Positions 4,973 to 54,120 of a stretch of 64,000 nucleotides of DNA are shown here, piece by piece. The notes beneath the pieces were generated by a model that worked only from the letters and a program-made list of their open reading frames with translations, made no database searches and was not told where the DNA came from. Each line of letters starts with the position of its first letter. Within the stretch, counting starts at the first letter, position 1. The stretch is from Clostridia bacterium (GTDB lineage: Bacteria > CBDUZB01 > JAGLHV01). The DNA is taken from assembly GCA_030637025.1 (NCBI GenBank), contig DAOVVV010000008.1, positions 5,802 through 69,801 of the forward strand, written 5' to 3'. A program made the position numbers and the translations under genes.

Positions 4973-5038
4973 GGTAGCCGCAGGCTTTAGCCTGCGTTAT
5001 CGTTGGAGATTTTACGCAGGCTAAAGCCTGCGACTACA
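4973..5038. repeat. palindromic element copy (ggtagccgcaggctttagcctgcg...cgcaggctaaagcctgcgactaca)
   Basis: Same architecture as 2553-2620. Two internal 16-bp hairpins flanked by inverted ends. Confidence 0.6.
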
Positions 5039-5109
5039 AAAACAGAAATCAGAACAGAAATATGCAGATATTTTTGACAATACTAAAGGAATATTGAAAG
5101 AGATAAAAA

Positions 5110-16374: not shown

Positions 16375-16525
16375 TGGTAGCCGCAACCTTTAGGTTGCGT
16401 TATCGCCGGAGATTTTCCGCAGGCTACTTGTTCGCTCCGCCTCAGGCGGATTTGGAGGAAAGCCTGTGACTACCAAAAAGGGAGTTATGACACAGTCTGT
16501 TTGCAAGAATGACGCAGCAAGCTGC
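16375..16525. repeat. palindromic element copy carrying a nested insertion of the ccgcctcaggcgg module (16427-16460) inside its second hairpin, plus a 3' REP-like tail
   Basis: The consensus aggctaaagcct hairpin is split as aggcta[34-nt insert]agcct. The ends tggtagccgc / gtgactacca are retained. Confidence 0.6.
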
Positions 16526-16649
16526 AGATAATTAGACCCAAAGAGAAATTATTAAATTTCATTAAGTATAATTTAGCAGGCTTACAGTCTGCCATTATGT
16601 TTGGTGGAAAGATGAAAATATTGCAAGAGAAATTTGGGTGATTAAAAGC

Positions 16650-16678
16650 TTGACAATGTTACATTTAATATTTATACT
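16650..16678 (+). promoter_or_regulatory. sigma-70 promoter TTGACA-N17-TATACT
   Basis: TTGACA at 16650-16655 and TATACT at 16673-16678. About 280 nt upstream of the 16956 gene. Confidence 0.45.
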
Positions 16679-16744
16679 AAGACATATTTTGAAGAATAAA
16701 ATGGCACAATGATGTGCATTATAAGGACAAAGGGGTCCGATATT

Positions 16745-16767
16745 AAAGGGGCACCTTTTATTTTTTT
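16745..16767 (+). terminator. short hairpin (aaagg-ggca-ccttt) plus U-tract, a possible attenuator in the leader
   Basis: 5-bp stem, 4-nt loop, then tattttttt. Preceded by a 22-codon mini-ORF (ATGATGTGC...). Confidence 0.25.
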
Positions 16768-16783
16768 AAAGGTGTGAAGTTAA

Positions 16784-16924
16784 AGAGTTCTGCAAAATAC
16801 AATATTCTGTCATTTCGCTCTGCCTGAGGCAGATGATGCGGAATCTATAATGTTTTTAAATATCAATAGATTCCTGTTTTCGCAGGAATGACAAAAAAGA
16901 TAAAAAGCTATTTTGCAGAAGTCT
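16784..16924 (+). mobile_element. MITE-like composite repeat copy (TIRs agagttctgc / gcagaagtct)
   Basis: Same modules as 254-396. Its 3' end lies 31 nt before the 16956 ATG. Confidence 0.6.
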
Positions 16925-16955
16925 ATGTGAAGTTATTAAAAGGAGGAAAGGAAAA

Positions 16956-21760: not shown

Positions 21761-22135
21761 GATAGTCCATAGACAACAAACAACAGAAAGTTATAAGTTA
21801 ATAGTTATGAGTTATAAGTTAAAAGAAAATTGAAAGACAAGAATAAAAAACAGGCACAAAGGCATCAAGGCACAGAGGCACAAAGTAAAAGACAAGACAA
21901 CAGATAGTCCATAGACAACAAACAACAGAAAGTTATAAGTTACTAGTTATGAGTTATAAGTTAAAAAAAAATTGAAAGACAAGAATAAAAGACAGGCACA
22001 AAGGCATCAAGGCACAGAGGCACAAAGTAAAAGACAAGACAACAGATAAAAGATAAAAGAAAGTTATTAGTTAATAGTTATGAGTTATAAGTTAAAGAAA
22101 TAAAAAACAAAGACAAAGACAAAAGAAAAAAGACG
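21761..22135. repeat. tandem array: two full 142-bp units (21761-21902, 21903-22044), a degenerate third, and a degenerate unit upstream
   Basis: Units are more than 95% identical. Each contains an 8-bp-periodic AGGCACAA x4 sub-repeat and a gttataagtta sub-repeat. The + strand is strongly T-depleted. Confidence 0.8.
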
Positions 22136-22145
22136 GGAGAATATA

Positions 22146-22481
22146 ATGTTTTGTCCAGAGTGTCGAGCTGAATTCATAGAGGGAATAACCGTTTGCAGTG
22201 ATTGTGGAATTACCTTAGTCGAAGAATTATCTCCCCAGCCAAAACCGGAATATCATAAATTAGTGAAAGTTTTTTCCACCGGAAAAAGTATCGAAGCGGG
22301 ATTTGTTAAATCATTGTTAGAGGCAAATGAGATTAATTGTTTCATTAAAAATATGCATTATCCTTCGCTTATACCTGTAGGAATTGCAGCTGTTCCGATA
22401 AAAATAATGGTAGAAGAAAAAGACAAAGTTAATGCGGAAGAAATTATTAATCAATATTATAAAGATTTGAAAAACGAGTAA
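22146..22481 (+). CDS. zinc-ribbon (CPEC...CSDC) protein with C-terminal DUF2007-like domain
   Basis: N-terminal CxxC-x11-CxxC. The C-terminal LVKVFSTGKSIEAGFVKSLLEANEINCFIKN resembles the DUF2007 pattern. Confidence 0.5.
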   Translation: MFCPECRAEFIEGITVCSDCGITLVEELSPQPKPEYHKLVKVFSTGKSIEAGFVKSLLEANEINCFIKNMHYPSLIPVGIAAVPIKIMVEEKDKVNAEEIINQYYKDLKNE

Positions 22482-25454: not shown

Positions 25455-26591
25455 ATGGCCTGGATTCAAAAAACTTTAGATATAAACGAAAAACTTTCAG
25501 TTTTATCACATGATTCACAATACGATCTGGCATGTTCCTGCAGTATAAATGATGATGATCGCCGGCATCGCTCAAAAGAGGACAAGTGGATATATCCGGT
25601 TACTTTTCCTAATGGCGGCCGGTCTTTTTTGTTTAAGACTTTAATTTCTAATGTATGTGTTAATGATTGTAAATATTGTCCTTTGCGTGAAGGACAGAAT
25701 ACCAGAAGATGTACACTGCAGGCATATGAACTGGTAAAAGCCTTTCTTCAGTATTATCAAAAAGGTAAAGTGATGGGGCTTTTTTTAAGTAGTGGCGTAA
25801 TGGGTAATCCCGATAAAACAATGGAGCAAATAAATAAAATTGCTCTTATTTTAAGAAAAAAACATTTTAAAGGATACATTCATCTAAAAGTTATTCCCGG
25901 TGCTTCTAATGCAGCGATAGAGGAAACTGTTTCTTTAGCCAGTGCAGTTTCAATAAATATCGAAACTGCCGGCGAAAAGAATTTTAACCAACTTTCTAAC
26001 AGCAAAAACTATTTACAGGATATTATTAGGCCGCTTAAATTAATCAGCCGGCTTACCGGAAAAGGTTCTCGTTATAGTAGAGTAAAAAAAACGACGCAAT
26101 TTGTGGTTGGTGCATCTGAAGAAACTGACCAGGAAATTATTAAATATTCCTGGAACTTATACCGGCGATTGGGTTTAAACCGTATTTATTTTAGTGCTTA
26201 TCAACGGGGTTTAGGCGAACCTGATTTACCCGGGGAGATTTCCGGTCAAAGCAATAATGATATTTTAACTCGAGAGCATCGTTTATATCAGGCGGATTGG
26301 TTAATCAGAAAATATGGTTTTACGGAAAAAGAAATTCTTTTTCAAGCTGATGGTAATTTATCATTGACTCTGGACCCCAAGGAAACTTGGGCTAAGAATC
26401 ATCCGGAATTTTTTCCGGTTGATATTAATAAAGCAGATAAGTTAAAATTACTACGGGTCCCGGGTTTAGGATTGGTTACCGTTAATTATATACTTAAATA
26501 CAGGGAAAAGGGTGGATATATTCGTTATCTGGAAAACTTAGGAAAATTAGGAAAAAGACTGATCAAGGCAAAACAGTATTTAAAAATTTAG
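25455..26591 (+). CDS. radical SAM protein with C-terminal helix-hairpin-helix (putative DNA modification/repair radical SAM family)
   Basis: CVNDCKYC (CxxxCxxC) and a C-terminal LLRVPGLGLVTVNYIL HhH. No partner gene lies adjacent. Confidence 0.65.
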   Translation: MAWIQKTLDINEKLSVLSHDSQYDLACSCSINDDDRRHRSKEDKWIYPVTFPNGGRSFLFKTLISNVCVNDCKYCPLREGQNTRRCTLQAYELVKAFLQYYQKGKVMGLFLSSGVMGNPDKTMEQINKIALILRKKHFKGYIHLKVIPGASNAAIEETVSLASAVSINIETAGEKNFNQLSNSKNYLQDIIRPLKLISRLTGKGSRYSRVKKTTQFVVGASEETDQEIIKYSWNLYRRLGLNRIYFSAYQRGLGEPDLPGEISGQSNNDILTREHRLYQADWLIRKYGFTEKEILFQADGNLSLTLDPKETWAKNHPEFFPVDINKADKLKLLRVPGLGLVTVNYILKYREKGGYIRYLENLGKLGKRLIKAKQYLKI

Positions 26592-26595
26592 ATAG

Positions 26596-26735
26596 ACTTC
26601 TGCGGAATGACACATTCTGTCATTCCGCTCCGCCTCAGGCGGATGATGCGGAATCTATAATATTCTTAAATATCAATAAATTCCTGCTTCCGCAGGAATG
26701 ACAATAAAAGGAAAAAGGTTGTTTTGCAGAACTCT
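26596..26735 (+). mobile_element. MITE-like composite repeat copy (5' TIR agacttctgc, 3' gcagaactct)
   Basis: The 5' TIR is an exact reverse complement of the canonical 3' end. Its 3' end lies 30 nt before the 26766 ATG. Confidence 0.6.
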
Positions 26736-26765
26736 TAAAAATTCAGAAATAAAGGAGGGGGAATT

Positions 26766-34027: not shown

Positions 34028-35494
34028 ATGAAAATTTCAGTAAAAATAATATTGTCAATGATTTTATGCTGCCTGGCTACTGTTAATGTACAGGCCAAAA
34101 CTAATATAAAAGAAGCTATCGTAAAAATATATACTGTTTGCAACCGATATAATTATTATGAACCATGGCAAATGCGCGGTCAAAGAAGAGGAACGGGTTC
34201 AGGGTGCATAATTAATGGCAACAGAATATTAACTAATGCTCATGTAATTGCGGACCAAACCTTTATCCAGGTAAAACGGGCCGGACAATCAAAGAAATAT
34301 ACAGCAGAAGTAGAAATTGTAGCTCACGAATGTGACCTTGCTATTTTGAAGGTTAAAGACGATTCATTTTTTACAGGGGTTAAACCGTTGCAGATTGGGA
34401 AATTAGCAGAAGTGAGAGATAAAGTTGCTGTTTATGGTTTTCCGGTAGGTGGTGATGAATTGTGTATTACCGAAGGGGTAGTTTCTCGCATAGAACATCA
34501 GGCATATACTCATAGTAAGGCCCATTTATTAACCTGTCAAATTGATGCTACCATTAATCCCGGGAATAGCGGGGGACCTGTAGTCAAAAATAATAAAATA
34601 GTTGGAATAGCCTTTCAAGCAGGTGCAGGTGAAAATATTGGATATATGGTTTCTGTGCCGGTTATTAATCATTTTTTACAGGACATAAAAAATAATAAGT
34701 ACGATGGAATCCCTGATATTGGTATTTCCTGTCAAAAAATGGAAAATTATGCCCTCAGAAAAAAATATAATATGAACTCTAAACAAACAGGATTGTTGAT
34801 AAATAAAATTTATCCCGGCTCTTCTGCCGAGGGAAGATTAAAATCCGAAGATATAATCCTTGCTGTAGACAATAAAAATGTCGAAAATGACGGAACAATA
34901 GAATTCCGAGAAAATGAAAGAACATTTTTTATATATGTAATTCAAAATAAATATATCAATGATACTGTTAATTTTAATATTCTAAGAGAGAGTAAAATTA
35001 TTAATGTAAAAATAAAATTGACCACCCCGGTAAATTTTTGGCGGTTAGTTCCGCATCAACAGTATGATATTGCTCCGACTTATTATATTTTAGGCGGATT
35101 GGTGTTTGAACCTTTAACTCTGGATTTTTTAAATGAATGGGGTGGAGATTGGAATAATGATGCCCTTAAGAATTTAATCAACTATTATTATTCCGGAGAA
35201 ATATTATCCGAGCGAAAAGAAATAGTCATACTGGTGCAGGTTTTAGCCGATGAAATTAATACAGGCTATCATGATTGGAAATATAATGTAATTTCTTATG
35301 TTAATGGCCAAAAGGTAAGCATCATAAGTGATTTGGTGACCGCGATTGAAAAACATAAAGGAAAATATCATACAATAGTAGATGAACGCGGATATAAAAT
35401 AGTTTTAGATAAAAATGAAGTTGATAAGAACAATCAAAGAATTTTAAAAAAATATAAAATTAATTTTGACCGTTCGGAAGATTTAAAAAAATGA
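34028..35494 (+). CDS. secreted trypsin-like (S1/HtrA-like) serine protease
   Basis: Signal peptide, catalytic His (LTNAHV), Asp (CDLAIL) and Ser (GNSGGPV), then a ~250-aa C-terminal extension. Confidence 0.7.
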   Translation: MKISVKIILSMILCCLATVNVQAKTNIKEAIVKIYTVCNRYNYYEPWQMRGQRRGTGSGCIINGNRILTNAHVIADQTFIQVKRAGQSKKYTAEVEIVAHECDLAILKVKDDSFFTGVKPLQIGKLAEVRDKVAVYGFPVGGDELCITEGVVSRIEHQAYTHSKAHLLTCQIDATINPGNSGGPVVKNNKIVGIAFQAGAGENIGYMVSVPVINHFLQDIKNNKYDGIPDIGISCQKMENYALRKKYNMNSKQTGLLINKIYPGSSAEGRLKSEDIILAVDNKNVENDGTIEFRENERTFFIYVIQNKYINDTVNFNILRESKIINVKIKLTTPVNFWRLVPHQQYDIAPTYYILGGLVFEPLTLDFLNEWGGDWNNDALKNLINYYYSGEILSERKEIVILVQVLADEINTGYHDWKYNVISYVNGQKVSIISDLVTAIEKHKGKYHTIVDERGYKIVLDKNEVDKNNQRILKKYKINFDRSEDLKK

Positions 35495-35496
35495 AT

Positions 35497-35730
35497 AGAG
35501 TTCTGCAAAATAACGCATTCTGTCATGCGGAATCTGTAATGTGTTTAAAATATCAATAGATTTCTGCTTTCCAGACTGTGTCGCAATCCCTTTTTTGGTA
35601 GTAGCAGGCTTTAGCCTGCGGCTACCACATGAAAATATGAGTTATGACACAGTCTGTTCGCAGGAATGACTTGCCTTATCCGCCAGTCTTTAAGGCGGAG
35701 CGGGCAGGCAAACTACTTCGCAGAAAGATT
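35497..35730 (+). mobile_element. MITE-like composite repeat (5' TIR agagttctgc) with the short palindromic element (35596-35627) and ccgccagtctttaaggcgg module nested inside
   Basis: Largest copy (~235 bp). Its 3' end lies 30 nt before the 35761 ATG. Confidence 0.55.
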
Positions 35731-35760
35731 AAAAAATAAACTAAAAGGAGGAAATTAGTA

Positions 35761-38038: not shown

Positions 38039-38728
38039 ATGTCTAAAGAAAAAATCTTAGTTATTGAGGACGATAAACATCTTTCCAAACTTATCAAGTA
38101 TAACATGGAAAAGGCTGGTTTTGACTGTGTAGCAACTCCAACCGGAGAAATAGCATTAAAAACCTTAGACAGACAACCAGTTGATTTGATTATATTGGAT
38201 ATAATGCTTCCTAAAATGGACGGACTTCAGGTTTGTAAACAAATAAAACAAGATAAAAAATTAGCTGCCATTCCCATCATTATGTTAACCGCCAAAGGTG
38301 AAGAAATAGATAGGATTGTCGGATTTGAGCTGGGTGCGGATGATTATATAGTTAAACCGTTTAGTGTGCGGGAATTAATTTTGAGAATAAAAGCAATCCT
38401 GAAACGAAATAAAAAAGAAAAAACTCTGCAAAACATATTAACTGCAGGCAAACTAACCATTGATATTCCCCGGCATAAAGTAATGGTAAATAAAAAAGAA
38501 ATAGAATTAACCCTGATTGAATTTAAGCTTTTAGTTACTCTTATAGAAAGAAAAGGCAGGGTTCAATCACGGGATCGATTATTAGATGATGTATGGGATA
38601 TATCCTCTGAGGTTACTACCCGAACTGTAGATACGCATGTTAAAAGGCTAAGACAAAAATTAGGCCCGGCGGGAAACTTAATTGAAACTGTGAGGGGAAT
38701 CGGATACAGGTTTGCTGACGGGGGATAA
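38039..38728 (+). CDS. phoB: OmpR-family response regulator, phosphate regulon
   Basis: REC domain with an intact DD...D...K set, plus a winged-helix C-terminus. Adjacent to phoR and pst. Confidence 0.85.
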   Translation: MSKEKILVIEDDKHLSKLIKYNMEKAGFDCVATPTGEIALKTLDRQPVDLIILDIMLPKMDGLQVCKQIKQDKKLAAIPIIMLTAKGEEIDRIVGFELGADDYIVKPFSVRELILRIKAILKRNKKEKTLQNILTAGKLTIDIPRHKVMVNKKEIELTLIEFKLLVTLIERKGRVQSRDRLLDDVWDISSEVTTRTVDTHVKRLRQKLGPAGNLIETVRGIGYRFADGG

Positions 38729-38733
38729 TTATT

Positions 38734-40506
38734 TTGAAAATTAATATTCATTATAAAATTACAATTATTTTTACTATAATTCTGGCGATTATTCTTTTTG
38801 GTATTTACTTATCTCTTAATGATAATTTAAAGACTAATACTTACCAACGGATTAAAACAAATCTGTTTAAAGAAACTGCTTTATGCAAATCCTTTATAGA
38901 ACAACACTATATTCAAAACCTTCAATCTCAGGAATTAGATAATTTTTTACATGAAATAGCTGATGATTTAAATTTAAGGGTCACTATTATCAACCTGGAA
39001 GGAACTGTTTTGGCTGATTCGGAAGTAAACCGGGATATTCTGGGTAAAGTGGAAAATCATCTCTATCGGCCTGAGATTCAACAGGCTCTGCATTCCGGCA
39101 TTGGAGAAAGCAGGCGTTTCAGCACCACGGTAAAAAAAGATATGCTTTATGTTGCCAGTACTATTGGCCGAAATAAGCCGGAGGGAATAATCAGATTATC
39201 TATGCCTCTAGCTGAAATTGAATTAATATCCAATCATTTAAAGAAATTGTTGATTGTTTCTCTTTTATTTGCTTTTTTTCTGGCAATTATAATTAGTTTT
39301 GCTGCTTCTATGTTTATTTCTCAACCAATAAAAAAGATGTCTTTGTTTGCCCAAGATATAGCCAAAGGTGATTTTTCTAAAAGAATTTTAAATTTAACCA
39401 ACGACGAATTCGGTGACATGGCTAAAGCTTTTAATTATATGTCTGAGCAAATTAAATTAAAAATTAACGAAGTCAACTTGAGCAAATCAAGATTTGAAGC
39501 AATTCTTTTGAGTATGTTTGAAGGGGTAATGGTTGTTGATACAAAGGGAACTATTTTATTGATGAACCGGGCACTAAAAGATTTATTGAAAGTTAAAGAC
39601 GAATTTGTAAATAAAAAACCATTGGAAATACTTCGTAACATCGAAATTCAGGAAATAGTTGATAATACATTAAAATTAAAACAGGGGGTTGAATCCCGCG
39701 AAATATCTGTTTTATTCCCGGAAGAAAAGATTTTGTTAATTCATGCAACACCGGTGGTTCGGGAAAATGAGACAGAAGGGGCTGTTTTAGTATTTCATGA
39801 TATAACAAGTTTGCGAGAGCTGGAAAAAATCCGTAAGGATTTTGTAGCTAATGTTTCCCACGAATTAAGGACCCCTGTAGCCAGCATTAAAGGTTATGCA
39901 GAGACATTATTGGATGGAGCACTGGAAGATAAAAATAATGCTAAAGATTTTTTAAAAATAATTTATACTGATATCGACCGCCTGGCAAGATTGATTGACG
40001 ATTTGCTTAATTTATCCAGGATAGAATCAGGTAAATTCAAAATGAATTTACAACTCTGTGCTATTGCTCCCATAATTAAAGGCGTTGTTTCCAGATTGAA
40101 TAAACAAGCCCGGGATAAATCCATTACTATTAAAACAAATATTCCTGAAAAGCTGGATTCTCTTTTAATTGACGAAACAAGAATTGCCCAGGTTTTATTC
40201 AATCTTATTGATAATGCCATCAAATATATACCTGAGAAGGGGAATATTATTATTTCAGTTAATGAAAAAGATGGTTTTATTCAAATAAATATTGCTGATA
40301 CCGGATCCGGCATTGCTCAGGAACATATTCCCCGGCTTTTTGAACGATTTTACCGGGTAGATAAATCCCGTTCCCAGGAATTAGGGGGAACAGGATTGGG
40401 ATTGGCTATCGTTAAACACATTATTCAAGCTCATCAGGGAGAAGTTTTTGTACAAAGCATTTTAGGACAGGGTTCTGTTTTTAGTTTTACTCTGCCTAAG
40501 GCTTAG
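38734..40506 (+). CDS. phoR: phosphate regulon sensor histidine kinase (TM-HAMP-PAS-HisKA-HATPase)
   Basis: H-box VSHELRTPV, plus N, G1 and G2 boxes. TTG start follows the phoB stop. Confidence 0.85.
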   Translation: MKINIHYKITIIFTIILAIILFGIYLSLNDNLKTNTYQRIKTNLFKETALCKSFIEQHYIQNLQSQELDNFLHEIADDLNLRVTIINLEGTVLADSEVNRDILGKVENHLYRPEIQQALHSGIGESRRFSTTVKKDMLYVASTIGRNKPEGIIRLSMPLAEIELISNHLKKLLIVSLLFAFFLAIIISFAASMFISQPIKKMSLFAQDIAKGDFSKRILNLTNDEFGDMAKAFNYMSEQIKLKINEVNLSKSRFEAILLSMFEGVMVVDTKGTILLMNRALKDLLKVKDEFVNKKPLEILRNIEIQEIVDNTLKLKQGVESREISVLFPEEKILLIHATPVVRENETEGAVLVFHDITSLRELEKIRKDFVANVSHELRTPVASIKGYAETLLDGALEDKNNAKDFLKIIYTDIDRLARLIDDLLNLSRIESGKFKMNLQLCAIAPIIKGVVSRLNKQARDKSITIKTNIPEKLDSLLIDETRIAQVLFNLIDNAIKYIPEKGNIIISVNEKDGFIQINIADTGSGIAQEHIPRLFERFYRVDKSRSQELGGTGLGLAIVKHIIQAHQGEVFVQSILGQGSVFSFTLPKA

Positions 40507-40715
40507 TAAAAAAGGAGATATTTTATTAATTGTAATAGGAACAAAAATAATAAGTCCTTTATGCCGTAAAATATATATATTTCTAACTGCGTAATTTTTT
40601 TGGAGTGCATTAACCCTGTTAATGTATGCATCGTTAGGAACAATGTATTGCACACATACAGATATTTTTTTCACCTCGACAAATCTTTTCTGTAAACCAA
40701 ATCACAAAAAAACAT

Positions 40716-40732
40716 TTCACAAAAAATTCACA
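40716..40732 (+). promoter_or_regulatory. direct repeat TTCACA-N5-TTCACA (11-bp period), a PhoB/PhoP-box-like element
   Basis: Sits in the phoR-porin intergenic region, with an additional ATCACA 15 bp upstream. Separated from the porin gene by a repeat insertion. Confidence 0.3.
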
Positions 40733-40810
40733 CAAATGCTCTTTTTTTGCCACACCGATAATATATACTTTTCTTGAAAATAAAAAAAATTAAAGTATAA
40801 ATATTTTTTA

Positions 40811-40964
40811 AATTCCTGTTTTCCAGACTATGGCACAACTCTGATTTTTAAAGCAATTGTAGGGGCAACATTTATGACGCCCGTCGGAAAAAGTATTCAT
40901 CAGCCCAATCCTCCAAATCCGCCTGAGGCGGAGCGGGCAGGCAATAAAGGTAGAAAGGCTATTT
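40811..40964 (+). mobile_element. 5'-truncated MITE-like composite repeat (retains 3' end ggctattttacaaaagatt)
   Basis: Contains ccgcctgaggcgg and gagcgggcaggc modules. Followed by AAAGGAGG and an ATG-TAA mini-ORF (41005-41010). Confidence 0.5.
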
Positions 40965-41066
40965 TACAAAAGATTTAAAGTTAAAAATAAAGGAGGACAA
41001 GAAAATGTAAAACATAAGCGGTATAAAGAAGTAGAAAACAAAAACGATAAAAAGGAGAATTGAAAA

Positions 41067-42299
41067 ATGAAAACAAAATTTTTAATTTTAATGGCAGGAA
41101 TATTATTAACGGTTACATTTGGTTCCATCCACTCTTTTGCCGGTGAAGTTGAGATTTTAGTAAATAAACTGGTAGAGAAAGAAATACTTAATCCGGTAGA
41201 AGCACAAATTATTATGGATGAAACTAAACAAGCGATAGCTAATGAATTAAGTCAGGGTAAATCAGTTAGTACTCCCGGATGGGTTCAGAAAATGACCTTT
41301 AAAGGGGATTTGCGTCTGCGTTACCAATGGAACAAAAAAGAAGCAAAGGTTGAACGTCATCGGGGAAGATACAGATTTAGACTTGGTGCAAAAGCAAATG
41401 TAGTGGATAAAGTCAAAGTAGGATTTGGATTTTGCTCCGGGGGAACGGATCCCCGTTCTACTAACCAGACCATGACTAACACCTTTGAAACTCCGGATTT
41501 GCGATTGGATTATGCCTATATGCAATGGTCACCTAAGACATGGCTTGATTTTTATGGTGGTAAATCTAAGAGAAAAGCAATAATTCGACAAAATTCCGAC
41601 CTTTTGTGGGATTCCGATATTAATATTGAGGGGGGTGCTTTTGTTATCAATAAATCCTGCGGAATGAAAACAGATTTATTGATAAGTTTTGGAAGTCTTG
41701 TTTTGGATGAATCAAGTAGTGATATATCCGATCCTGTAATGTATTTTAGTCAGGCAGGAATAAATTGGAAAACAGGAAATTCTTTTTCTTTAAAGCCCAC
41801 AATTACTTATTATGATGCATATAACGTAAAAGACGATTCGCTTGACCATTCTGAAGGAACTAACAGTTTGGACAGCAATGATTGTTTTATCTATGATTAT
41901 AATGTCGTTAATCCGGAATTGGAATTAGCTGTTAAAACATCTTGTAGTAAAGTGCCTTATTTTTCCTTATTCGGTGGATATGCTTCTAACCTTGATCCGG
42001 ATGAAGATAATGAGGGGTATCTTTTCGGATTGAAATTCGGAGATAAAAAAGTAAAAAAGAAAGGGCAATGGCAATTCAAATACACCTGTCGCCAACTGGA
42101 AAAAGATGCCTGGCTGGATACATTTCCTGATTCTGATTTTCATGGCGGAAAAACAGGTGTAAAAGGTTCAGAAGTAATATTACAGTATGCACTAGCGAAA
42201 AATGTAATTTTAGGGTTTGATTATTATTGCAGTGAAAAAATAAACGCTCCGGTAGTAACCGAAGAGATACTGCAGGTTGATTTATTGTTGAAATTTTAA
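41067..42299 (+). CDS. phosphate-selective porin O/P family outer-membrane protein
   Basis: Signal peptide, N-terminal coiled segment, a KGDLRLRYQW motif and a C-terminal Phe. Confidence 0.65.
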   Translation: MKTKFLILMAGILLTVTFGSIHSFAGEVEILVNKLVEKEILNPVEAQIIMDETKQAIANELSQGKSVSTPGWVQKMTFKGDLRLRYQWNKKEAKVERHRGRYRFRLGAKANVVDKVKVGFGFCSGGTDPRSTNQTMTNTFETPDLRLDYAYMQWSPKTWLDFYGGKSKRKAIIRQNSDLLWDSDINIEGGAFVINKSCGMKTDLLISFGSLVLDESSSDISDPVMYFSQAGINWKTGNSFSLKPTITYYDAYNVKDDSLDHSEGTNSLDSNDCFIYDYNVVNPELELAVKTSCSKVPYFSLFGGYASNLDPDEDNEGYLFGLKFGDKKVKKKGQWQFKYTCRQLEKDAWLDTFPDSDFHGGKTGVKGSEVILQYALAKNVILGFDYYCSEKINAPVVTEEILQVDLLLKF

Positions 42300-42341
42300 A
42301 CAATATAATGCTTAACTAAAATTTACATAGAGTTTGCTAAG

Positions 42342-42358
42342 TTGTCACAAAATTGTCA
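42342..42358 (+). promoter_or_regulatory. Pho box: TTGTCA-N5-TTGTCA direct repeat (matches the E. coli CTGTCAT 11-bp-period consensus)
   Basis: tTGTCAcaaaatTGTCATat, ~45 nt upstream of the pstS start. Confidence 0.55.
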
Positions 42359-42401
42359 TATTTGAATGTTATTGTTTATTAAACAAAGGGAGGAATTTAA
42401 A

Positions 42402-43280
42402 ATGAAAAAGCGTTTACAGGTTTTAACAGGAATTGGATTGGGATTGATTTTAACTACAAGCCTTTATGCCCAGGAAATGGTGCAAATAAAAGGTTCGGAT
42501 ACGTTGATTAATCTTGTACAACGATTATCTGAAGTATATATGGAAAAAAATCCGGGCAAATTTATTGCCATAACCGGTGGAGGTTCGGGAACAGGAATTG
42601 CAGGATTGATTAACGGAAAGTGTGATATTGCCAATGCTTCCCGTTTGATGAAATCCAAAGAAATAAAGCAAGCCAACAGCAGAAAAATAACACCTAAAAG
42701 AATCGTAATTGCTATGGATGGTTTAAGTGTTATTGTTAATGACCGGAATCCGGTTGATAAATTAACCAAGGATGAACTCGGCAGAATATTTCGTGGAGAA
42801 GTTACTAATTGGAAGGAAATCGGCGGAAAAGATATGTCCATTACTCTTTACGGCAGGCAATCTAATTCGGGAACTTTTGTTTTCTTTAAAGAAGCAATAT
42901 TAAAAGCTGATTATTCACAGAAAATGAATCGTATGAATGGTAACGCACAAATAGTAGAAGCAGTAAAGCAGGATGTTAGCGGCATTGGTTATGTCGGAGT
43001 AGGGTATGTAAAAAAAGTAACCGGACTTACTGTTGTAAGGGTTGCTTCTGCTTCCGAAAAAAAATACATCAGCCCGCTTGATGCCGAAGATGTTAAAAGC
43101 GGAAAATATCCTATTACCCGTCCGCTTAATCAGTATCTAAATGGCATACCTAAAGGTGCGGTTAGTCATTTTATTGCTTTTGAATTGAGTAAAGAGGGAC
43201 AAAGAATCGTGGAGGAAGAAGGATTTTTCCCTATACCTTCCGAATATAGAGATTTTAACAATAAAAATTTGGGAATGTAG
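42402..43280 (+). CDS. pstS: phosphate ABC transporter substrate-binding protein
   Basis: Start moved to the ATG after aaagggagg. MKKRLQVLTGIGLGLILTTSLYA signal peptide. Confidence 0.85.
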   Translation: MKKRLQVLTGIGLGLILTTSLYAQEMVQIKGSDTLINLVQRLSEVYMEKNPGKFIAITGGGSGTGIAGLINGKCDIANASRLMKSKEIKQANSRKITPKRIVIAMDGLSVIVNDRNPVDKLTKDELGRIFRGEVTNWKEIGGKDMSITLYGRQSNSGTFVFFKEAILKADYSQKMNRMNGNAQIVEAVKQDVSGIGYVGVGYVKKVTGLTVVRVASASEKKYISPLDAEDVKSGKYPITRPLNQYLNGIPKGAVSHFIAFELSKEGQRIVEEEGFFPIPSEYRDFNNKNLGM

Positions 43281-43310: not shown

Positions 43311-44195
43311 ATGAATATGAATAAATTTAAAGAAAAAGTAATCCATAGCCTCTTTTTCTTTAATGGATTATTAGTGGTATTAGTACTCTTGGGAATATTT
43401 GCTCTTTTGGTTTTTACGGCTCTTCCCGGGTTTAAAGAAATAAAAGTAACCGAGTTTTTATTTAAATCACATTGGAATCCAACGTCTTACATTAAATCAT
43501 CTTATGGAATTGTTTCTATGCTGGTAAGCACCTTAATGGTTACTTTCGGAGCACTTTTAATTGCTATTCCTTTAGGTATCGGAACTGCCGCTTACTTAAC
43601 GGATTTAGCCAGTCCCAGGGTAAGAGAAATTGCTAAGCCCATTATTGAAATATTAGCGGGAATTCCATCGGTGGTTATCGGTTTTCTGGGCATTCTTCTG
43701 ATAGGACCTTTTATTGCCCGGCTTTTTGGTTTACATAATGGACTTAACGCAATAAATGGGTCCGTTCTTCTGTCAATAATGGCTTTACCCACTATTATCA
43801 GTTTGTCCGAAGATGCTTTAAAAAGCGTTCCTAAATCGTATACGCAAGCCTCTCTGGCACTGGGGGCAACTAAATGGCAAACCCTGGTAAAAATAAAAAT
43901 CCCGGCGGCCTGTTCAGGGATATTAGCGGCATGTATGTTAGGGATGGGCAGGGCAATAGGGGAAACAATGACGGTTCTTATGGCTACAGGGTGTGCACCT
44001 GCAATGCCTAAAAGTTTTTTGGGTTCAGTGCGGACAATGACTTCTACCATTGCCATTGAATTGGGAGAAGTACCTTATAATACCACTCATTATTATGCCC
44101 TTTTTGGTATTGGTCTGGTATTATTTGTGATAACTTTTATTGTCAATATGATTTCCGATATTATTTTGCATAGGCACGAAAGGAAAACAAGATGA
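43311..44195 (+). CDS. pstC: phosphate ABC transporter permease
   Basis: Six TM segments and an EAA-like loop. Confidence 0.9.
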   Translation: MNMNKFKEKVIHSLFFFNGLLVVLVLLGIFALLVFTALPGFKEIKVTEFLFKSHWNPTSYIKSSYGIVSMLVSTLMVTFGALLIAIPLGIGTAAYLTDLASPRVREIAKPIIEILAGIPSVVIGFLGILLIGPFIARLFGLHNGLNAINGSVLLSIMALPTIISLSEDALKSVPKSYTQASLALGATKWQTLVKIKIPAACSGILAACMLGMGRAIGETMTVLMATGCAPAMPKSFLGSVRTMTSTIAIELGEVPYNTTHYYALFGIGLVLFVITFIVNMISDIILHRHERKTR

Positions 44196-45046
44196 AAAAC
44201 AAAGAATTGCAGGAAATATTAGGCTTTAATCTGTTAAGAATATGTGTGGGGATTGTCGGCATAATCCTGGCAATTATTTTATATGATTTAACCAGCAAAG
44301 GGATAAGTAAAATAAGCTGGGAATTTTTTACTGCGATGCCCCGTAAGGGAATGACAGAGGGGGGTATCCTACCTGCCATTATCGGCACTTTTCTGGTAAC
44401 CGTTATTACAGCAGTTTTAGCTATACCGTTAGGTATGGGGTGTGCTATATACTTGAATGAATACGCTAAAAAAAATAAAATAACCCGGATTATTCGGATG
44501 TCGATCAGAAATCTATCCGGAGTTCCTTCCATAGTGTATGGATTATTCGGGGTGATATTATTTGTGCAGTTAATGCACCTTGGTACTTGTGTTTTATCAG
44601 CTGGTTTGACTTTAGGATTAATGACTCTTCCCTGGACTATTACTGCCAGCGAGGAATCTTTAAAGAATATACCAAATTCTTATCGGGAAGGTTCTTTGGC
44701 TTTGGGTGCCACCAAATGGCAAATGATTAAAACCAATGTGTTACCTTATGCTGCCGGAGGGATGCTTACCGGAACGATTCTTGGTTTGGCCCGTGCTGCC
44801 GGAGAAACAGCTCCCATTCTTTTTACCGGGGCTGCTTTTTACCTTCCTTTTATTCCGAAGTCACTATTCAGTCAGTTTATGGCATTACCTTACCATCTTT
44901 ATATAATGTCCACTCAACACCATGCAATAACTAAAGTGCGGCCGATCGCTTATGCAACGGCTCTGGTATTAATAATGTTAGTATTAACTATAAATCTATC
45001 AGCCGTAATTTTAAGATATCGTTTACGAAAACTTAAAAGGGAGTAA
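44192..45046 (+). CDS. pstA: phosphate ABC transporter permease
   Basis: ATGA overlap with pstC. Permease fold. Confidence 0.9.
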
Positions 45047-45050
45047 TCAT

Positions 45051-45809
45051 ATGAATGACACGAAAATCGATGTAATTAATTTCAATTTTTATTATAGCGG
45101 AGAGAAAGCCTTAAACAATGTAACAATTAGTATACAACAAAATATGGTTACCGGAATAATCGGTCCTTCAGGATGTGGAAAGTCTACTTTTTTACGCTGC
45201 CTTAATCGGATGAATGATGTTATTCCAGGAATAAAAGTAGAGGGGGAAGTTTTGCTGGATAACGAAGATATTTATGCTTCGAATGTTGATGTAGTGAAGA
45301 TAAGAAGACAAATAGGGATGGTTTTTCAAAAATCTAATCCTTTTCCTAAGTCAATCTTCGATAATGTTGCTTATGGTTTAACTATAAATGGAATAAGGGA
45401 TAAAAATTATATTGTTGAGAAGGTAGAGAAAAGTCTGAAAGATGCTGCTTTATGGGATGAAGTTAAAGACAGATTGAATAAAAGTGCTTTTGATTTATCA
45501 GGCGGGCAGCAACAAAGATTATGTATTGCCCGGGCTTTGGCGGTAGAACCGGAAGTATTGCTTATGGATGAACCGGCTTCAGCTTTGGACCCTAAAGCTA
45601 CTTTAAAAATAGAAGAACTTATTCAGGAATTAAAGAAAAAATATACCATAATTATTGTTACTCATAATATGCAGCAAGCGGCACGTATTTCGGATTTTAC
45701 TGCTTTTTTTATGATGGGAGAATTAATTGAATATGATACAACAAGCAAAATTTTTACTACACCCTCGATGAAAGTTACTGAGGATTATATTACAGGTAGG
45801 TTTGGATAG
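45051..45809 (+). CDS. pstB: phosphate ABC transporter ATP-binding protein
   Basis: Walker [10 protein letters not shown], signature LSGGQQQR, Walker B LLMDEP. Confidence 0.95.
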
Positions 45810-45847
45810 ATTTTAAATTTGAATTAAATTGAAGGGGGAGGAAAAAA

Positions 45848-46522
45848 ATGGAACGGCATTTTGATGAGGAATTAAAAAATTTAAAAGAGTTATTATTGAA
45901 AATGAGTATTTTAGTAGAAAAAGCAATTAATTATTCAATAAAAGCTTTAGTTGAACGCAAAACGAAATTGGCTGAAAAAGTGATTAAGTCTGATAATGCC
46001 ATAAATATGATGGAAATAGAAATAGATGATTTTTGCCATATGCTTTTGGCTCTTCGCCAACCGGCAGCAATTGATTTGAGATTTATTACTGCGGCAATGA
46101 AAATTAATAATGATCTTGAACGCATAGGAGATCAAGCAGTTAACATTGCTGAACGTACCCGTGAAATAATCAAAGAACCCTTACTTAAACCTTTGATAGA
46201 TATCCCCCTCATGGCCACCCTGGCTAAAAAAATGATTAAGGATTCCATTGATGCTCTGGTAAATAAAGATGAATCGTTAGCCAGGGATATATGTAAAAGA
46301 GACGATAAAGTCGATGATTTAAACAATCAGATATTTAGAGAATTATTAACCTATATGATGCAGGATCCTAAAACAATTACCAGAGCTGTGGAACTTATTT
46401 TAGTCGGAAGGCATTTAGAACGAATAGCAGACCATGCTACTAATATCTCGGAAGAAGTTATTTATTTTCTGAGCGGAAAAACTATAATGCATCATATGGA
46501 AGATATTAAAAAACAGCAATAA
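45848..46522 (+). CDS. phoU: phosphate signalling complex protein PhoU
   Basis: Duplicated three-helix PhoU repeats, 224 aa. Confidence 0.9.
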   Translation: MERHFDEELKNLKELLLKMSILVEKAINYSIKALVERKTKLAEKVIKSDNAINMMEIEIDDFCHMLLALRQPAAIDLRFITAAMKINNDLERIGDQAVNIAERTREIIKEPLLKPLIDIPLMATLAKKMIKDSIDALVNKDESLARDICKRDDKVDDLNNQIFRELLTYMMQDPKTITRAVELILVGRHLERIADHATNISEEVIYFLSGKTIMHHMEDIKKQQ

Positions 46523-46667: not shown

Positions 46668-46728
46668 AGAGTTATGACGAAATTTTGATTATATTTTTAG
46701 GAAATAGAATATTGTATTTTGCAGAATT
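46668..46728 (+). mobile_element. miniature copy of the MITE-like element: only the two TIR regions (aaagagttatgac ... tattttgcagaat)
   Basis: Both termini are recognisable about 35 bp apart. The 3' end lies 29 nt before the ATG at 46758. Confidence 0.4.
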
Positions 46729-46757
46729 ATTTTTTAGAAAACAAAAAGGAGGAAAAA

Positions 46758-46967
46758 ATGTTAGGATATTGGTCAGTAATAATTCTTTTGGGTATTCTTA
46801 TGTGTTATAATTTAATTAATGCTTACAAGGATTATACTTCAGATAATAAAACATTAAAATTTGCCGGTCATTTAATTCTTTTGTTGGTGCTTTTTATTAT
46901 CATCTTAAATTCTCTTTTTACTGTAATGGAATTCGGTCTCGAAACAACAACAATTTTCTCAAAATAA
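46758..46967 (+). CDS. small two-TM membrane protein (69 aa)
   Basis: AAAAAGGAGG RBS. The ORF-track start at 46719 is probably too far upstream. Confidence 0.35.
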   Translation: MLGYWSVIILLGILMCYNLINAYKDYTSDNKTLKFAGHLILLLVLFIIILNSLFTVMEFGLETTTIFSK

Positions 46968-47025: not shown

Positions 47026-48135
47026 TTAGCTTTTATTGTTTGAAATTAAAATAATTTTTACGATTTCTGAACGGGAAAAGAGACGCATTGGAGGGCCCCA
47101 GGTTCCTGTACCACAGGTTGTATAAATATAAGAATCTTCAAATTGATATAATCCCCATGGGTATTTAAAGGCTAACCAGACTATCAAATCCAGTGGGGGA
47201 ATTTGTCCTGCGTGAGTATGTCCGGATAATTGTAAATCAACACCTTTTTTAACTGCCTGCCGGAAGTATTTTGGTTGGTGAGAAAGAAGAATAACCGGTT
47301 TGTTTAAATTGCAATTTTTCATTGCTTTTTTAAGATTCGGACCGGCAAGAGAAAACCTTTTCCCTGTTTCATCATCAATGCCGATTATTTCAACTGTATC
47401 GGCAATAGTTATTTTTTCATTTCTTAAAACAGTGATATTCGATTGTTCGGCAATTTCCAGAAAATGACTGACTCCGGCATAAAACTCATGATTTCCGGTA
47501 ATAGCCAGCACCCCGTGTTTTGATTTTAATTCTTTCAATATAGGATAGAATTTTTCAAAATTGTGAACACTCTGATCTATCAAGTCTCCGGTAATAACTA
47601 TTAAATCCGGATTTAATTTATTTGTTTTATCTACTATAGATTTTAACCATCGGGTCGAGGTTAAGGAATCTAAATGTAAATCGGATAATTGAACAATAGA
47701 AAATCCTGATTTTTCAAAGGGTAGTTTTTTTGTTGTTATTCGAATTTCTTTTATTTTTACTTCTCTGGCGGCATTATAAAGTGAAAATACACTGCTGAAT
47801 AAAACAAGAATAAGAGTAATCATAGTCCAAACTTTGTTGTGATGGATAAAAAATAATCCTGCAATATCTTTAAGAAAAAACAGAAAAAAAGCAATAGATA
47901 TTACCCCTAACCAGACAGAACTAAAATAAACCAGCAAATAAACTAAAAAATATCTACTTAATAGTTTTCCCAACACAAACGATAATGCGGCAAACAAGAA
48001 AAAAAGTCTCAGATAATTACCAATTAAAGGAGAAAGGGCTAATCCTTTTATGATACGCATACAAATATAGTAATGCATTCCTAAGTAAAAAGAAGCAGCT
48101 ATTAAAATAAAAATAAAAAGATACAGGATATTCAT
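47026..48135 (-). CDS. membrane-anchored calcineurin-like metallophosphoesterase
   Basis: Four N-terminal TM helices and the phosphoesterase motifs (VQLSDLH, GDLID, GNHE, GHTH). RBS aaggtg precedes the internal MNILY start. The ORF extends to 48219. Confidence 0.75.
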   Translation of the reverse strand: MNILYLFIFILIAASFYLGMHYYICMRIIKGLALSPLIGNYLRLFFLFAALSFVLGKLLSRYFLVYLLVYFSSVWLGVISIAFFLFFLKDIAGLFFIHHNKVWTMITLILVLFSSVFSLYNAAREVKIKEIRITTKKLPFEKSGFSIVQLSDLHLDSLTSTRWLKSIVDKTNKLNPDLIVITGDLIDQSVHNFEKFYPILKELKSKHGVLAITGNHEFYAGVSHFLEIAEQSNITVLRNEKITIADTVEIIGIDDETGKRFSLAGPNLKKAMKNCNLNKPVILLSHQPKYFRQAVKKGVDLQLSGHTHAGQIPPLDLIVWLAFKYPWGLYQFEDSYIYTTCGTGTWGPPMRLFSRSEIVKIILISNNKS

Positions 48136-48234
48136 TTTTGTAACACCTTGATTTATTTGTTCAGTTATAGATAATAAAAATGTTTTTATGATTTTACAAA
48201 AAACGAGCATTTTTTGCAATTAAATAAAATTGTA

Positions 48235-53167: not shown

Positions 53168-53375
53168 AATTGTAATAAAGGGTAATGTCAAAAATAAAAT
53201 GATAAATACTCAGAGAAGGGTTATAAATAAAAAAGAATTTTTTCATAATGTAGGACGGAAAGCGTATAATCTATACTTTGGATACTTCCATAAGAAAAGG
53301 TTTAATTGATAATTGGAAAGAGTATGTGTTTAAATGTTCGTTGGATTTTGATTTAGAAGGAATTATTAAATAAAA

Positions 53376-53403
53376 ACGCAGGCTAAAGCCTGCGACTACC
53401 AAA
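53376..53403. repeat. half-copy of the palindromic element (cgcaggctaaagcctgcgactacca) abutting the RBS of the 53419 gene
   Basis: The 16-bp hairpin gcaggctaaagcctgc lies 10 nt upstream of AAAGGAGG. Confidence 0.5.
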
Positions 53404-53418
53404 GAAAGGAGGAAAAGT

Positions 53419-53928
53419 ATGCAAGTGTATCGTTGTCGTGTATGTGGAGAAGTGTATATCGGAGATGAAAAACCCACAAGTTGTCCTTTTTGCGGTGCTC
53501 ATGAGGGGTATTTTGTTTTAGCTAAAGAATGGAAATTAATACATAGTGAGGTCTTATCCGATACAAGTAAAGAAAATTTAAAAAAAGCATTGGATTTGGA
53601 AATAAATAATACTAATTTTTACAAAGCCGCTTCGGAAAAAAGCAAAGATGTACATTTTTCCAGTATGTTTAAAGGTTTGTCCAAGGTGGAAAGAGAGCAT
53701 GCTTCAACTATATGTAAACATCTTAGAATAGCCAAACCGGAATCGAGTGTAGGAGCGGATAAGGCAGTTGATTCCGACCGGGCAAATATAGAAGAAGCTA
53801 ATCGCAGGGAAAAAAGTGCGGTTAAATTTTATGGGGAAGCAATTAATCAGGCACCGGAAGAAGCCATTAAAGAGTTTTTTAAAGCATTAATGCAGATAGA
53901 ATCAGACCATATAGCTTTAACCGACTAA
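53419..53928 (+). CDS. reverse rubrerythrin-like protein (N-terminal rubredoxin-like CxxC...CxxC + C-terminal ferritin-like diiron domain)
   Basis: N-terminal CRVCGEVY...CPFCGA and C-terminal E...ExxH ferritin-like helices. Confidence 0.65.
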   Translation: MQVYRCRVCGEVYIGDEKPTSCPFCGAHEGYFVLAKEWKLIHSEVLSDTSKENLKKALDLEINNTNFYKAASEKSKDVHFSSMFKGLSKVEREHASTICKHLRIAKPESSVGADKAVDSDRANIEEANRREKSAVKFYGEAINQAPEEAIKEFFKALMQIESDHIALTD

Positions 53929-53939
53929 AAATATTTAAG

Positions 53940-54091
53940 AGTTATGCAAAATACAATATTCTGCCTGCCCGCCAGTCTTTAAGGAGGGTCATTCCGCACT
54001 TGATGCGGAATCTATAATGTTTTTAAATATCAATAGATTCCTGCTTTCGCAGGAATGACAAAAAAGATAAAAAGCTATTTTGCAGAAGTTT
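53940..54091 (+). mobile_element. MITE-like composite repeat copy (TIRs agagttatgc / gcagaagttt)
   Basis: Near-identical to 254-396 and 16784-16924. Its 3' end lies 29 nt before the dfx ATG. Confidence 0.6.
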
Positions 54092-54120
54092 AAAAAATCT
54101 TTAATAAAGGAGGGAAGAAG

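Follow-up and report, generated by a model that had tools for sequence, protein, structure and literature searches.

Conserved Pho boxes, a MITE-like repeat and an ATG-TAA start-stop upstream of a porin gene in a Pho regulon locus of Candidatus Omnitrophota

Genes and gene order of the locus

The DNA analysed here, referred to as the window, is a stretch of 64 kb. It contains a conventional Pho regulon locus, and the host is a Candidatus Omnitrophota bacterium, which is uncultured. The genes follow each other in the contiguous order phoB-phoR, a 560-bp gap and Porin_5-pstSCAB-phoU, all on the + strand. The first gene (38039..38728) codes for a PhoB-like OmpR-family response regulator of 229 aa with Response_reg and Trans_reg_C domains; its top NCBIfam match is PhoB (TIGR02154) with 249.8 bits, which is under the cutoff of 296.2. 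The second (38734..40506) encodes a PhoR/PnpS-type sensor histidine kinase with the domain order sCache-HAMP-PAS-HisKA-HATPase, and scores 429.8 bits against NCBIfam PnpS (NF046044), over the cutoff of 400. After the gap comes the gene of an outer-membrane porin of the Porin_5 family (41067..42299, 410 aa; PF16930, E = 2.9e-49). PF16930 was the sole match of this protein and NCBIfam gave none, which places it outside Porin_O_P (PF07396) and the PhoE family, and its homologues in the protein database are titled putative porin of Candidatus Omnitrophota. A phosphate role for this porin is suggested by synteny and the Pho boxes. The phosphate-binding protein gene pstS (42402..43280; TIGR02136, 233.8 bits, cutoff 206.6) and the genes pstC, pstA, pstB and phoU (43311..46522), each of these four above its own NCBIfam equivalog cutoff, complete the locus.

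Independent metagenome assemblies covering the region agree at 99.5-100% identity and therefore exclude an assembly artefact. An apparent alternative allele in L003 and L025, in which 40503-40811 seemed to be swapped, was rejected as it is a 100-N scaffold gap. The intergenic region had no match in a phage collection by blastn. A scan of the whole window against Rfam found nothing at gathering thresholds, and a permissive scan of 40500-41100 returned only a chance miRNA match (E = 0.95) and no known RNA family.

Pho promoters of the porin gene and pstS

Two predicted Pho promoters were found, one of them some 350 bp in front of the porin gene and the other immediately in front of pstS. The pstS promoter has the Pho box TTGTCAC-AAAA-TTGTCAT (42342..42359, + strand), with units at 42342-48 and 42353-59. 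Its predicted -10 element TATTGT (42370..42375, + strand) lies 10 nt after the box, and the Shine-Dalgarno sequence (SD) AAGGGAGG at 42386-93 precedes the pstS ATG at 42402. TAnnnT occupies the same offset in nine of ten lineages, and L016 has CAAAAT. The original prediction of a clean Pho box with an 11-bp period upstream of pstS was thus borne out, since the box has textbook geometry and is kept in all ten lineages.

On the porin side, the TTCACA-N5-TTCACA repeat that had been pointed out at 40716-40732 is present and forms part of a larger array of four units (40714..40753, + strand) in exact 11-bp phase. The units are ATTTCAC (40714-20), AATTCAC (40725-31), a degenerate unit (40736-42) and TTGCCAC (40747-53). 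A predicted -10 element, TATACT (40764..40769, + strand), is located 10 nt past the last unit, and TA[T/C]ACT or TATTCT is found at the same offset in 10/10 lineages. Both promoters share 7-bp direct repeats, 4-bp gaps and an 11-bp period, with the last repeat ending 10 nt before the -10 element, and a generic promoter scan detected no canonical -35 element in either. This layout is kept in every one of the ten lineages compared, whose porins show 51-100% identity. By sequence, a porin promoter with the TTCACA repeat is the usual form, and it is conserved.

A PhoB-motif search had been proposed as a check and was run within the window. The pattern KTCAY-N6-KTCAY occurred three times against 2.13 expected, a count which is not significant alone, and neither strict nor relaxed box patterns rose above the shuffled expectation by count in the window. 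Two of the three hits have the correct orientation and fall within the two Pho intergenic regions, where they share one geometry and are conserved in ten lineages; for these two, placement, geometry and conservation are beyond chance. In close relatives, 52 of the 56 positions of the porin box array and -10 element are invariant, compared with a neutral benchmark of 82 invariant among 122 four-fold sites (67%; p = 5e-6).

The Pho box bound by PhoB in E. coli has the consensus CTGTCAT-A(A/T)A(T/A)-CTGTCA(C/T) and occurs in the pstS and phoE promoters. By eye, the pstS box of the window presumably fits about 15 of the 18 positions of this consensus. As in E. coli, the boxes consist of at least two direct repeats of 7 bp which recur every 11 bp, with an A/T spacer of 4 bp between them, the last repeat is 10 bp before the -10 element and there is no -35 element; the tandem boxes recall E. 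coli pstS, and the sites precede pstS and a porin gene, next to phoBR. Unlike in E. coli, the units on the porin side are (A/T)TTCAC instead of TGTCA(C/T) and resemble the PhoP repeat TT(A/T/C)ACA of Bacillus subtilis, the third porin unit is degenerate, and the regulator scores under the PhoB equivalog cutoff, its binding being a prediction. In the proposed mechanism, the response regulator of the adjacent phoB-like gene would, in its phosphorylated form, bind the boxes under phosphate limitation and recruit RNA polymerase, with PhoB binding predicted at both promoters. For the porin gene, transcription is predicted to begin near 40776, which would give the mRNA an untranslated leader of some 290 nt.

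The MITE-like repeat in the porin leader

The leader contains a 5'-truncated mosaic MITE-like repeat (40805..40979, + strand), which was recognised because parts of it match copies elsewhere in the window. A truncated MITE between the boxes and the porin gene had been proposed earlier; the repeat is real and MITE-like, and its extent has to be corrected from 40811-40964 to about 40805-40979. Besides the right-end module, it has one arm, the left, of a hairpin module and foreign fragments nested within it. The GC-rich palindrome CCGCCTGAGGCGG (40919..40931, no strand assigned) is a module of the repeat that is also present at 11616, 16435 and 26628. The right terminal inverted repeat TATTTTACAAAAGATT (40960..40975, + strand) is a degenerate form of the family consensus TATTTTGCAGAAGTCT. 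Portions of 40805-40979 recur at ~242-400, 11616, 16433-16928, 26583-26739, 35486-35740 and 53927-54095.

The family is a non-coding element of about 145 bp, represented in the 64 kb by five full copies of 141-154 bp (longer if nested) and by fragments. Full copies end in the terminal inverted repeats AGAGTTCTGCAAAATA and TATTTTGCAGAAGTCT; the porin copy has lost the left one, retains the right one in a degenerate form and is thus truncated. The copies are all intergenic and co-oriented with the genes, in mosaic and nested arrangements, and metagenome assemblies break at their positions. The annotated genes in the neighbourhood of the locus include no transposase. Correia elements of Neisseria, the enterobacterial ERIC/IRU and REP/BIME, which can sit in mRNA leaders, are likewise short, non-coding and multi-copy, with terminal inverted repeats, hairpin modules and a mosaic build, and the likeness is one of layout. 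The flank duplications found here set the family apart from them, being long and variable.

Three full copies are flanked by direct repeats that resemble target-site duplications, with lengths of 17 nt, 10 nt and 8 nt (13 nt if one mismatch is allowed). A fourth full copy has the imperfect pair AAAAATATTTA / AAAAAATCTTTA, noticed by eye, and a 7-nt exact match there falls within the downstream gene. The length of the flank repeats thus varies from about 8 to 17 nt, which is unusual, and the truncated porin copy offers no such comparison. In the full copies the duplications stop short of the SD of the next gene, clearly so in three of the four complete copies. All seven right-end repeats of the window have an SD and ATG within 9-25 nt downstream, and the sequence from the terminal inverted repeat to the SD is different in every copy. 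Since the flank repeats end before the SD and the spacer differs per copy, the SD and ATG would be target DNA and not part of the element. The gaps 26592-26765 and 53929-54120 consist almost wholly of the element. The regular position of the repeats before an SD and ATG would follow from insertion into very short pre-existing intergenic spacers.

At the porin gene, the repeat is found at the orthologous position in L006, L007, L008 and L027, with different nested content in each, and the site appears to be an insertion hot spot. The outgroups described below are without the element at the porin leader, so its presence is polymorphic. The 3' module of the repeat is invariant at 22 of 41 positions. 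Its content is best regarded as evolutionarily neutral passenger DNA that would be transcribed through; such read-through is predicted, and no terminator-like sites were detected on the + strand from the promoter to the porin gene. Candidate sigma-54 promoters (TGGCAC at 40833 and GG..TTGCA in the right end of the repeat) were rejected as the spacing is wrong by eye; TGGCAC at 40833 is not kept in L007.

The orphan Shine-Dalgarno sequence and ATG-TAA

The SD AAAGGAGG (40989..40996, + strand) is followed after an 8-nt spacer by an ATG-TAA start-stop (41005..41010, + strand). The original prediction took SD-N8-ATGTAA for the end of the element; both motifs exist, yet they are in the flanking DNA, 10-14 nt past the end of the repeat. 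From the TAA to the porin ATG (41067) there are 56 nt, which include the true porin SD AAAAAGGAG (41049..41057, + strand), with AAAGGAGA invariant in five lineages. About 21 strong SD and ATG pairs are present on the + strand of the window. As all of them except the one at 41005 open ORFs of at least 58 codons, the orphan looks like a genuine ribosome-binding site and not noise.

Conservation was analysed in five lineages, which differ at about 20% of four-fold sites. ATGTAA is invariant at all six positions (p = 0.084 against neutral), the segment from SD to TAA at 15 of 19 (p = 0.175) and the post-repeat leader at 57 of 84 compared with 66% neutral (p = 0.42), all in a test of low power in which even the true SD-ATG segment reaches only 16/21 (p = 0.23). 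The conservation of the start-stop appears to fit the neutral expectation at this low power. Of the five lineages, the window alone has the orphan SD in canonical form, and the other four show 5 to 8 consecutive G in its place; all five retain a G-rich SD whose spacing of 6-8 nt is functional. Folding of the leader gave z = -0.44 for the window and z = +0.86 for L006; neither structure is significant, and none is common to the two. In the predicted fold of the window, the orphan SD is paired with UCCUCC at 40909-14, and this pairing is absent from the leader fold of L006, the only relative folded.

Loss of small ORFs between promoter and porin gene

Eight outgroup lineages (L009, L011-L014, L016, L018 and L020) have no repeat and show the order promoter, small ORF(s), porin gene. 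Two small ORFs occur between promoter and porin in these lineages, one of about 45 aa, a membrane peptide, and one of about 65 aa, a soluble protein that is conserved as protein among the outgroups. A tblastn search with the outgroup small ORFs found no homologue of either in the 64-kb window. The real change in the clade of the window appears to be the loss of these two ORFs, which the outgroups have kept; the ancestral operon would have had both between promoter and porin gene. The start of the second ORF in L016 reads AAGGAGG-N8-ATG-TAT-GAA and the window has AAGGAGG-N8-ATG-TAA-AAC. Local alignments between the post-repeat leader of the window and the small-ORF regions of the outgroups were not significant, as 38-267 of 300 shuffles reached the score. 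No transitional lineage, with a porin identity of 64% to 92%, was found in genome contigs, metagenome contigs or the protein database. Taken together, the start-stop is most likely the remnant ribosome-binding site of a lost small ORF.

Discussion

The locus is probably a conventional Pho locus whose porin leader carries a neutral passenger repeat and, as a relic of a lost small ORF, the start-stop. It had been suggested that the repeat itself carries or creates a ribosome-loading cassette of SD and ATG-TAA and that it rewired the Pho control of the porin. The constant neighbourhood of right-end repeats and SD-ATG pairs is what speaks for such a cassette and for an uncoupling of the porin from Pho control. 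That neighbourhood is explained by insertion into very short spacers; the stretch between repeat end and SD is unique to each copy and, in full copies, duplicated at the left flank, and the Pho boxes are intact and conserved, so we regard this explanation as extremely improbable. The comparison with relatives lacking the insertion, which had been named as a check, was carried out and gave the same promoter architecture in the repeat-free outgroups. With the boxes conserved far beyond the neutral benchmark and the same layout in those outgroups, Pho control of the porin does not seem to have been rewired. Only slightly more probable, and still very unlikely, is transcription of the porin from an outward-facing promoter that the mobile element supplies, either within the repeat or immediately behind it; the distant Pho boxes would then no longer be in control. 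Outward promoters exist in some miniature elements, such as the Correia elements of Neisseria, and two other copies of the present family carry ATGACA-N15-TATTTT near the right end, which agrees with 9 of 12 consensus positions. The porin copy, however, is without this -35-like hexamer, two scans, of which the one for an outward promoter was weak, found no sigma-70-like site on the + strand from 40900 to 41066, and the 3' module of the repeat is poorly conserved. Moreover, the Pho promoter is strongly constrained in the repeat-carrying lineages, which is unexpected if it had lost its target.

A further explanation, which we hold to be possible but unlikely, is that SD-N8-AUG-UAA is a maintained start-stop at which a ribosome docks on the long leader. 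It could keep a subunit on standby for initiation at the porin gene, 56 nt further downstream, or it could shield the mRNA from 5' decay like the STAB-SD of Bacillus cryIIIA, and in either form it would make up for the lost translated small ORFs. The STAB-SD of the Bacillus thuringiensis cryIIIA mRNA lies close to the mature 5' end and needs no start codon to act. In the window, too, a GAAAGGAGG-like sequence is placed in a long 5' leader, tens of nt upstream of the real ribosome-binding site. The strong SD with ideal spacing, in a window whose other + strand pairs all open real genes, is in favour of maintenance, and so are the invariant ATG-TAA and the G-rich SD at 6-8 nt across the five lineages. 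G runs can pair with the anti-SD through G-U pairs, and the G runs of the relatives would be able to do so. On the other side, the conservation is not over the neutral level in any of the three comparisons, GGAGG has drifted to variable G runs in four of the five lineages although the true porin SD is invariant, and the folds of the window and L006 revealed no conserved RNA structure. The invariant ATG-TAA and the kept G-rich SD would also be expected of a maintained element. Start-stops do bind ribosomes in E. coli, where those in yecJ and hslR, located inside genes, are ribosome-bound and modestly alter the expression of the host gene (Meydan et al., bioRxiv 10.1101/520783). Unlike these, the putative start-stop of the window sits in a 5' leader, and its conservation is not beyond neutral.

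A bolder reading, to which we give a low probability, is that one ribosome-binding site was retained in the clade, reduced to a start-stop of one codon, when the two translated small ORFs were lost. Its present role would be to let ribosomes dock or stand by, or to stabilise the 5' end. If true, the retained start-stop would keep a long, repeat-laden leader, untranslated apart from it, productive and would buffer the operon against the continual insertion of repeats.

Under the favoured reading, a conventional Pho locus with a passenger repeat and a relic start-stop, the current understanding of phosphate regulation is unchanged and the finding is an ordinary one with modest curiosities. It holds a caution for readings made from sequence only: a repeat with a strong SD beside it is not necessarily the owner of that SD, and the matter was decided here by the flank duplications and outgroup synteny. 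Two leads arise, namely a conserved protein family of about 65 aa, found together with the Pho porin in most Omnitrophota and lost from the clade of the window, and a start-stop that occurs naturally in the 5' leader of a bacterial mRNA. For the Omnitrophota, an uncultured phylum, the analysis shows the control sites of the Pho regulon clearly and with phylogenetic support: the box geometry of E. coli PhoB holds, and the boxes on the porin side are a TTCAC variant.

Organization of the phosphate locus

The window has a G+C content of 34.5% and possesses a complete phosphate-regulon locus, identified with Pfam and NCBIfam and situated entirely on the + strand. The locus contains an OmpR family response regulator (38039-38728), for which PhoB was the top match with 249.8 bits, below the equivalog cutoff of 296.2, and a sensor kinase of PhoR/PnpS type (38734-40506), which scored 429.8 bits with the PnpS model, above the cutoff of 400. 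An intergenic region of 560 bp (40507-41066) is followed by a porin of 410 aa (41067-42299), by pstS for the phosphate-binding protein (42402-43280) and by pstC, pstA, pstB and phoU for the ABC transporter and PhoU (43311-46522). The porin belongs to the Porin_5 family and is not of OprP/PhoE type; its putative role in phosphate is suggested by its context. The name attached to its homologues is Candidatus Omnitrophota. Nearly all sizeable ORFs of the 64-kb window were found on the + strand, an extreme bias to which the Metallophos gene at 47026-48219 is an apparent exception. Upstream of a gene that starts at 22146, a 142-bp sequence is duplicated in tandem (21761-22100), with 98% identity between the two copies and a third, partial one.

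Within one metagenome series, the porin protein is encoded by contigs of several samples. Wherever they cover the intergenic region it is 99.5-100% identical and is thus no assembly artefact. The seeming replacement of 40503-40811 in two scaffolds was merely a 100-N gap.

Two PhoB-type promoters and their conservation

Both phosphate-box sites of the original prediction were recovered. The box of pstS reads TTGTCAC-AAAA-TTGTCAT (42342-42359), and the porin carries TTCACA-N5-TTCACA at 40716-40732. On recount, the porin boxes form part of a four-unit array on the + strand in exact 11-bp phase, composed of ATTTCAC (40714-20), AATTCAC (40725-31), a degenerate unit (40736-42) and TTGCCAC (40747-53). 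A putative -10, TATACT (40764-69), is positioned 10 nt past the last unit. Similarly, the pstS promoter has two units, 10 nt and then the putative -10 TATTGT (42370-75). In E. coli PhoB promoters the box stands in for the -35, with 10 bp between its end and the -10, and both promoters of the window have this same geometry. The pattern KTCAY-N6-KTCAY occurs 3 times in the window against 2.13 expected, a count which alone is not above chance; two of the three matches are the porin and pstS sites, both on the coding strand. As candidate sites known from sequence, both promoters agree with a PhoB Pho box in every testable feature. Transcription of the porin is predicted to start near 40776, giving a leader of ~290 nt, and no terminator-like site was found on the + strand between the boxes and the porin.

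To compare relatives, four close lineages (L006, L007, L008 and L027; ~91-94% porin nucleotide identity) and six outgroup loci (L009, L011, L014, L016, L018 and L020; 51-64% porin protein identity) were collected. The porin-promoter comparison covered ten lineages, namely the window, L006, L007, L008 and the outgroups, while L027, whose contig starts inside the repeat, was used for the leader comparison only. Unit spacing and -10 offset are identical across the ten lineages in both promoters. Among the close lineages, 82/122 four-fold degenerate porin sites (67%) are invariant. Against this neutral benchmark, the segment from the porin boxes to the -10 is invariant at 52/56 positions (p = 5e-6). 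The porin promoter is thus under purifying selection, and TTCACA is the form normally present there, not a damaged Pho box. The predicted rewiring of Pho control is not supported by this pattern, as the outgroups, which lack the insertion, also keep the same spacing and offset. Just 5' of the porin boxes, the block TTTTTTCACCTCGACAAATCTTTTCTGTAAACC (40665-40713) is invariant at 41/49 positions in close relatives (p = 0.008 versus neutral); outgroups lack a corresponding block, and their phoR stops ~25 nt ahead of the boxes.

A mosaic repeat family occupies the porin leader

The stretch ~40805-40979 is a member of a mosaic repeat family which litters the window. Full copies of 141-154 bp are present at 253-396, 16784-16924, 26594-26735 and 53938-54091, with a nested full copy from 35497 onward (35497-35740). 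They possess terminal inverted repeats (AGAGTTCTGCAAAATA and TATTTTGCAGAAGTCT) and internal hairpin modules, all in the same orientation. In these main features the repeat resembles a miniature inverted-repeat element (MITE). The duplications at its flanks reach 17 nt and are unusual in both length and variability. The five full ~145-bp copies occupy whole intergenic spacers from upstream stop codon to downstream Shine-Dalgarno sequence (SD), and a solo right terminal repeat (46715-46730) precedes an SD-ATG at 46758. Only the 3' part survives in the porin copy: one hairpin module is represented by its left arm, the right terminal repeat (40960-75) is degenerate, and foreign fragments are nested between these two. 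Truncated MITE is a fair label for this copy, with the right boundary at ~40979 and not at 40964 as predicted for the element (40811-40964). A second family of GGTAGCCGCAGGCTTTAGCCTGCG hairpins with ends CAGACTGTGTC...GACACAGTCTG (2554-2655, 4973-5045, 16376-16510, 35587-35667 and 53375-53410) inserts in the hairpin of the first, forming nested mosaics.

The orthologous site contains a short uninterrupted hairpin in L006, ~480 bp of nested repeats in L007 and other insertions in L008 and L027. As a result of this different repeat content, the boxes and the porin ATG are 254, 351, 401 or 617 nt apart in close lineages. The site is an insertion hot spot, and the 3' module of the repeat (22/41 invariant) is no better conserved than neutral sites. 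Contig breaks in metagenomes tend to fall exactly at this repeat, and a 100-N gap or scaffold end was observed there in the scaffolds L003 (2444-2543) and L025 and at the starts of L027 and L029. Assembly of these genomes is limited by repeats of this family.

Origin of the start-stop upstream of the porin

The predicted start-stop is present, with an orphan SD AAAGGAGG (40989-96), an 8-nt spacer and ATGTAA (41005-10), upstream of the true porin start (ATG 41067, own SD at 41049-57). Except the pair at 41005, all of the ~21 strong SD+ATG pairs on the + strand of the window open ORFs of 58 codons or more, so the orphan pair is hardly noise. An SD and ATG follow within 9-25 nt after all seven right-end repeats of the window, as expected if the repeat carried the cassette. 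A cassette of the repeat that rewired Pho control is nevertheless poorly supported, as the stretch from terminal repeat to SD is different in every copy and is duplicated at the left flank in full copies, over 17 nt (AAAACCAAAAAAAATTA), 10 nt (TGTGAAGTTA) and 8 nt, or 13 if one mismatch is allowed; in the fourth full copy the flanks match only imperfectly. Such target-site-like duplications suggest that SD and ATG are target DNA, and their regular presence would result from insertion where neighbouring genes are separated by very little DNA; the gaps 26592-26765 and 53929-54120 are almost wholly element. The same reasoning suggests that the SD-ATG at 40989-41007 opened a gene already in place when the element inserted. 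Also poorly supported is a porin promoter borne by the repeat, since no sigma-70-like promoter was found between boxes and porin on the + strand.

The repeat is absent from every outgroup; there, the same Pho promoter is followed by one or two small ORFs and then by the porin. One encodes a ~45-aa hydrophobic peptide (MNxILWLLILICFA...) and the other a ~65-aa protein (..SSLQSDFVASSLRSQL..SLRRVEKEL..), whose amino acid sequence is conserved among lineages and which matched no Pfam family. In the outgroup Omnitrophota loci examined, the ~65-aa ORF lies directly upstream of the Pho-regulated porin, usually preceded by the ~45-aa peptide (L009 5640-5990; L011-L013; L014 2677-2946; L016 2784-3050; L018 2792-2986; L020 2784-2984). 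In L018 (2146-2986; L019 is the same) the two ORFs are separated by a gene for an additional, receiver-only response regulator, and a second complete Pho-box promoter lies just 5' of the ~65-aa ORF. Neither ORF was found in the window, and the equivalent leader of close relatives showed repeat DNA and the start-stop only. The repeat is positioned 20-40 nt past the -10, matching the position of the first small ORF's SD in outgroups, and the second ORF of L016 starts with AAGGAGG-N8-ATG-TAT-GAA versus AAGGAGG-N8-ATG-TAA-AAC in the window; similarities between leader and small ORFs are suggestive and not significant versus shuffles.

The main alternative, that the start-stop is maintained because ribosomes use it as a standby site or stabilise the message there, has a precedent in start-stops documented to bind ribosomes in E. 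coli (bioRxiv 10.1101/520783) and is considered unlikely here. ATG-TAA is invariant at 6/6 positions in five close lineages (p = 0.084) and the whole post-repeat leader at 57/84 versus 66% neutral (p = 0.42), both in a test of such low power that even the true SD-ATG segment alone is not significant. The orphan SD is canonical in the window only, with runs of 5 to 8 G in other close lineages, whereas AAAGGAGA, the true porin SD, does not vary. The leader matched no known RNA family and showed no fold that was significant or shared. The start-stop may have a function, but nothing positively supports one. The best-supported account is that the two PhoB-type promoters are intact and the porin leader has turned into a dumping ground for mobile repeats; the ancestral small-ORF cassette was lost in the clade of the window, and the orphan ribosome-binding site, whose second codon is a stop, is probably its relic. 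Useful by-products are an Omnitrophota Pho-box consensus, a small protein family usually preceding the porin and a candidate natural start-stop.
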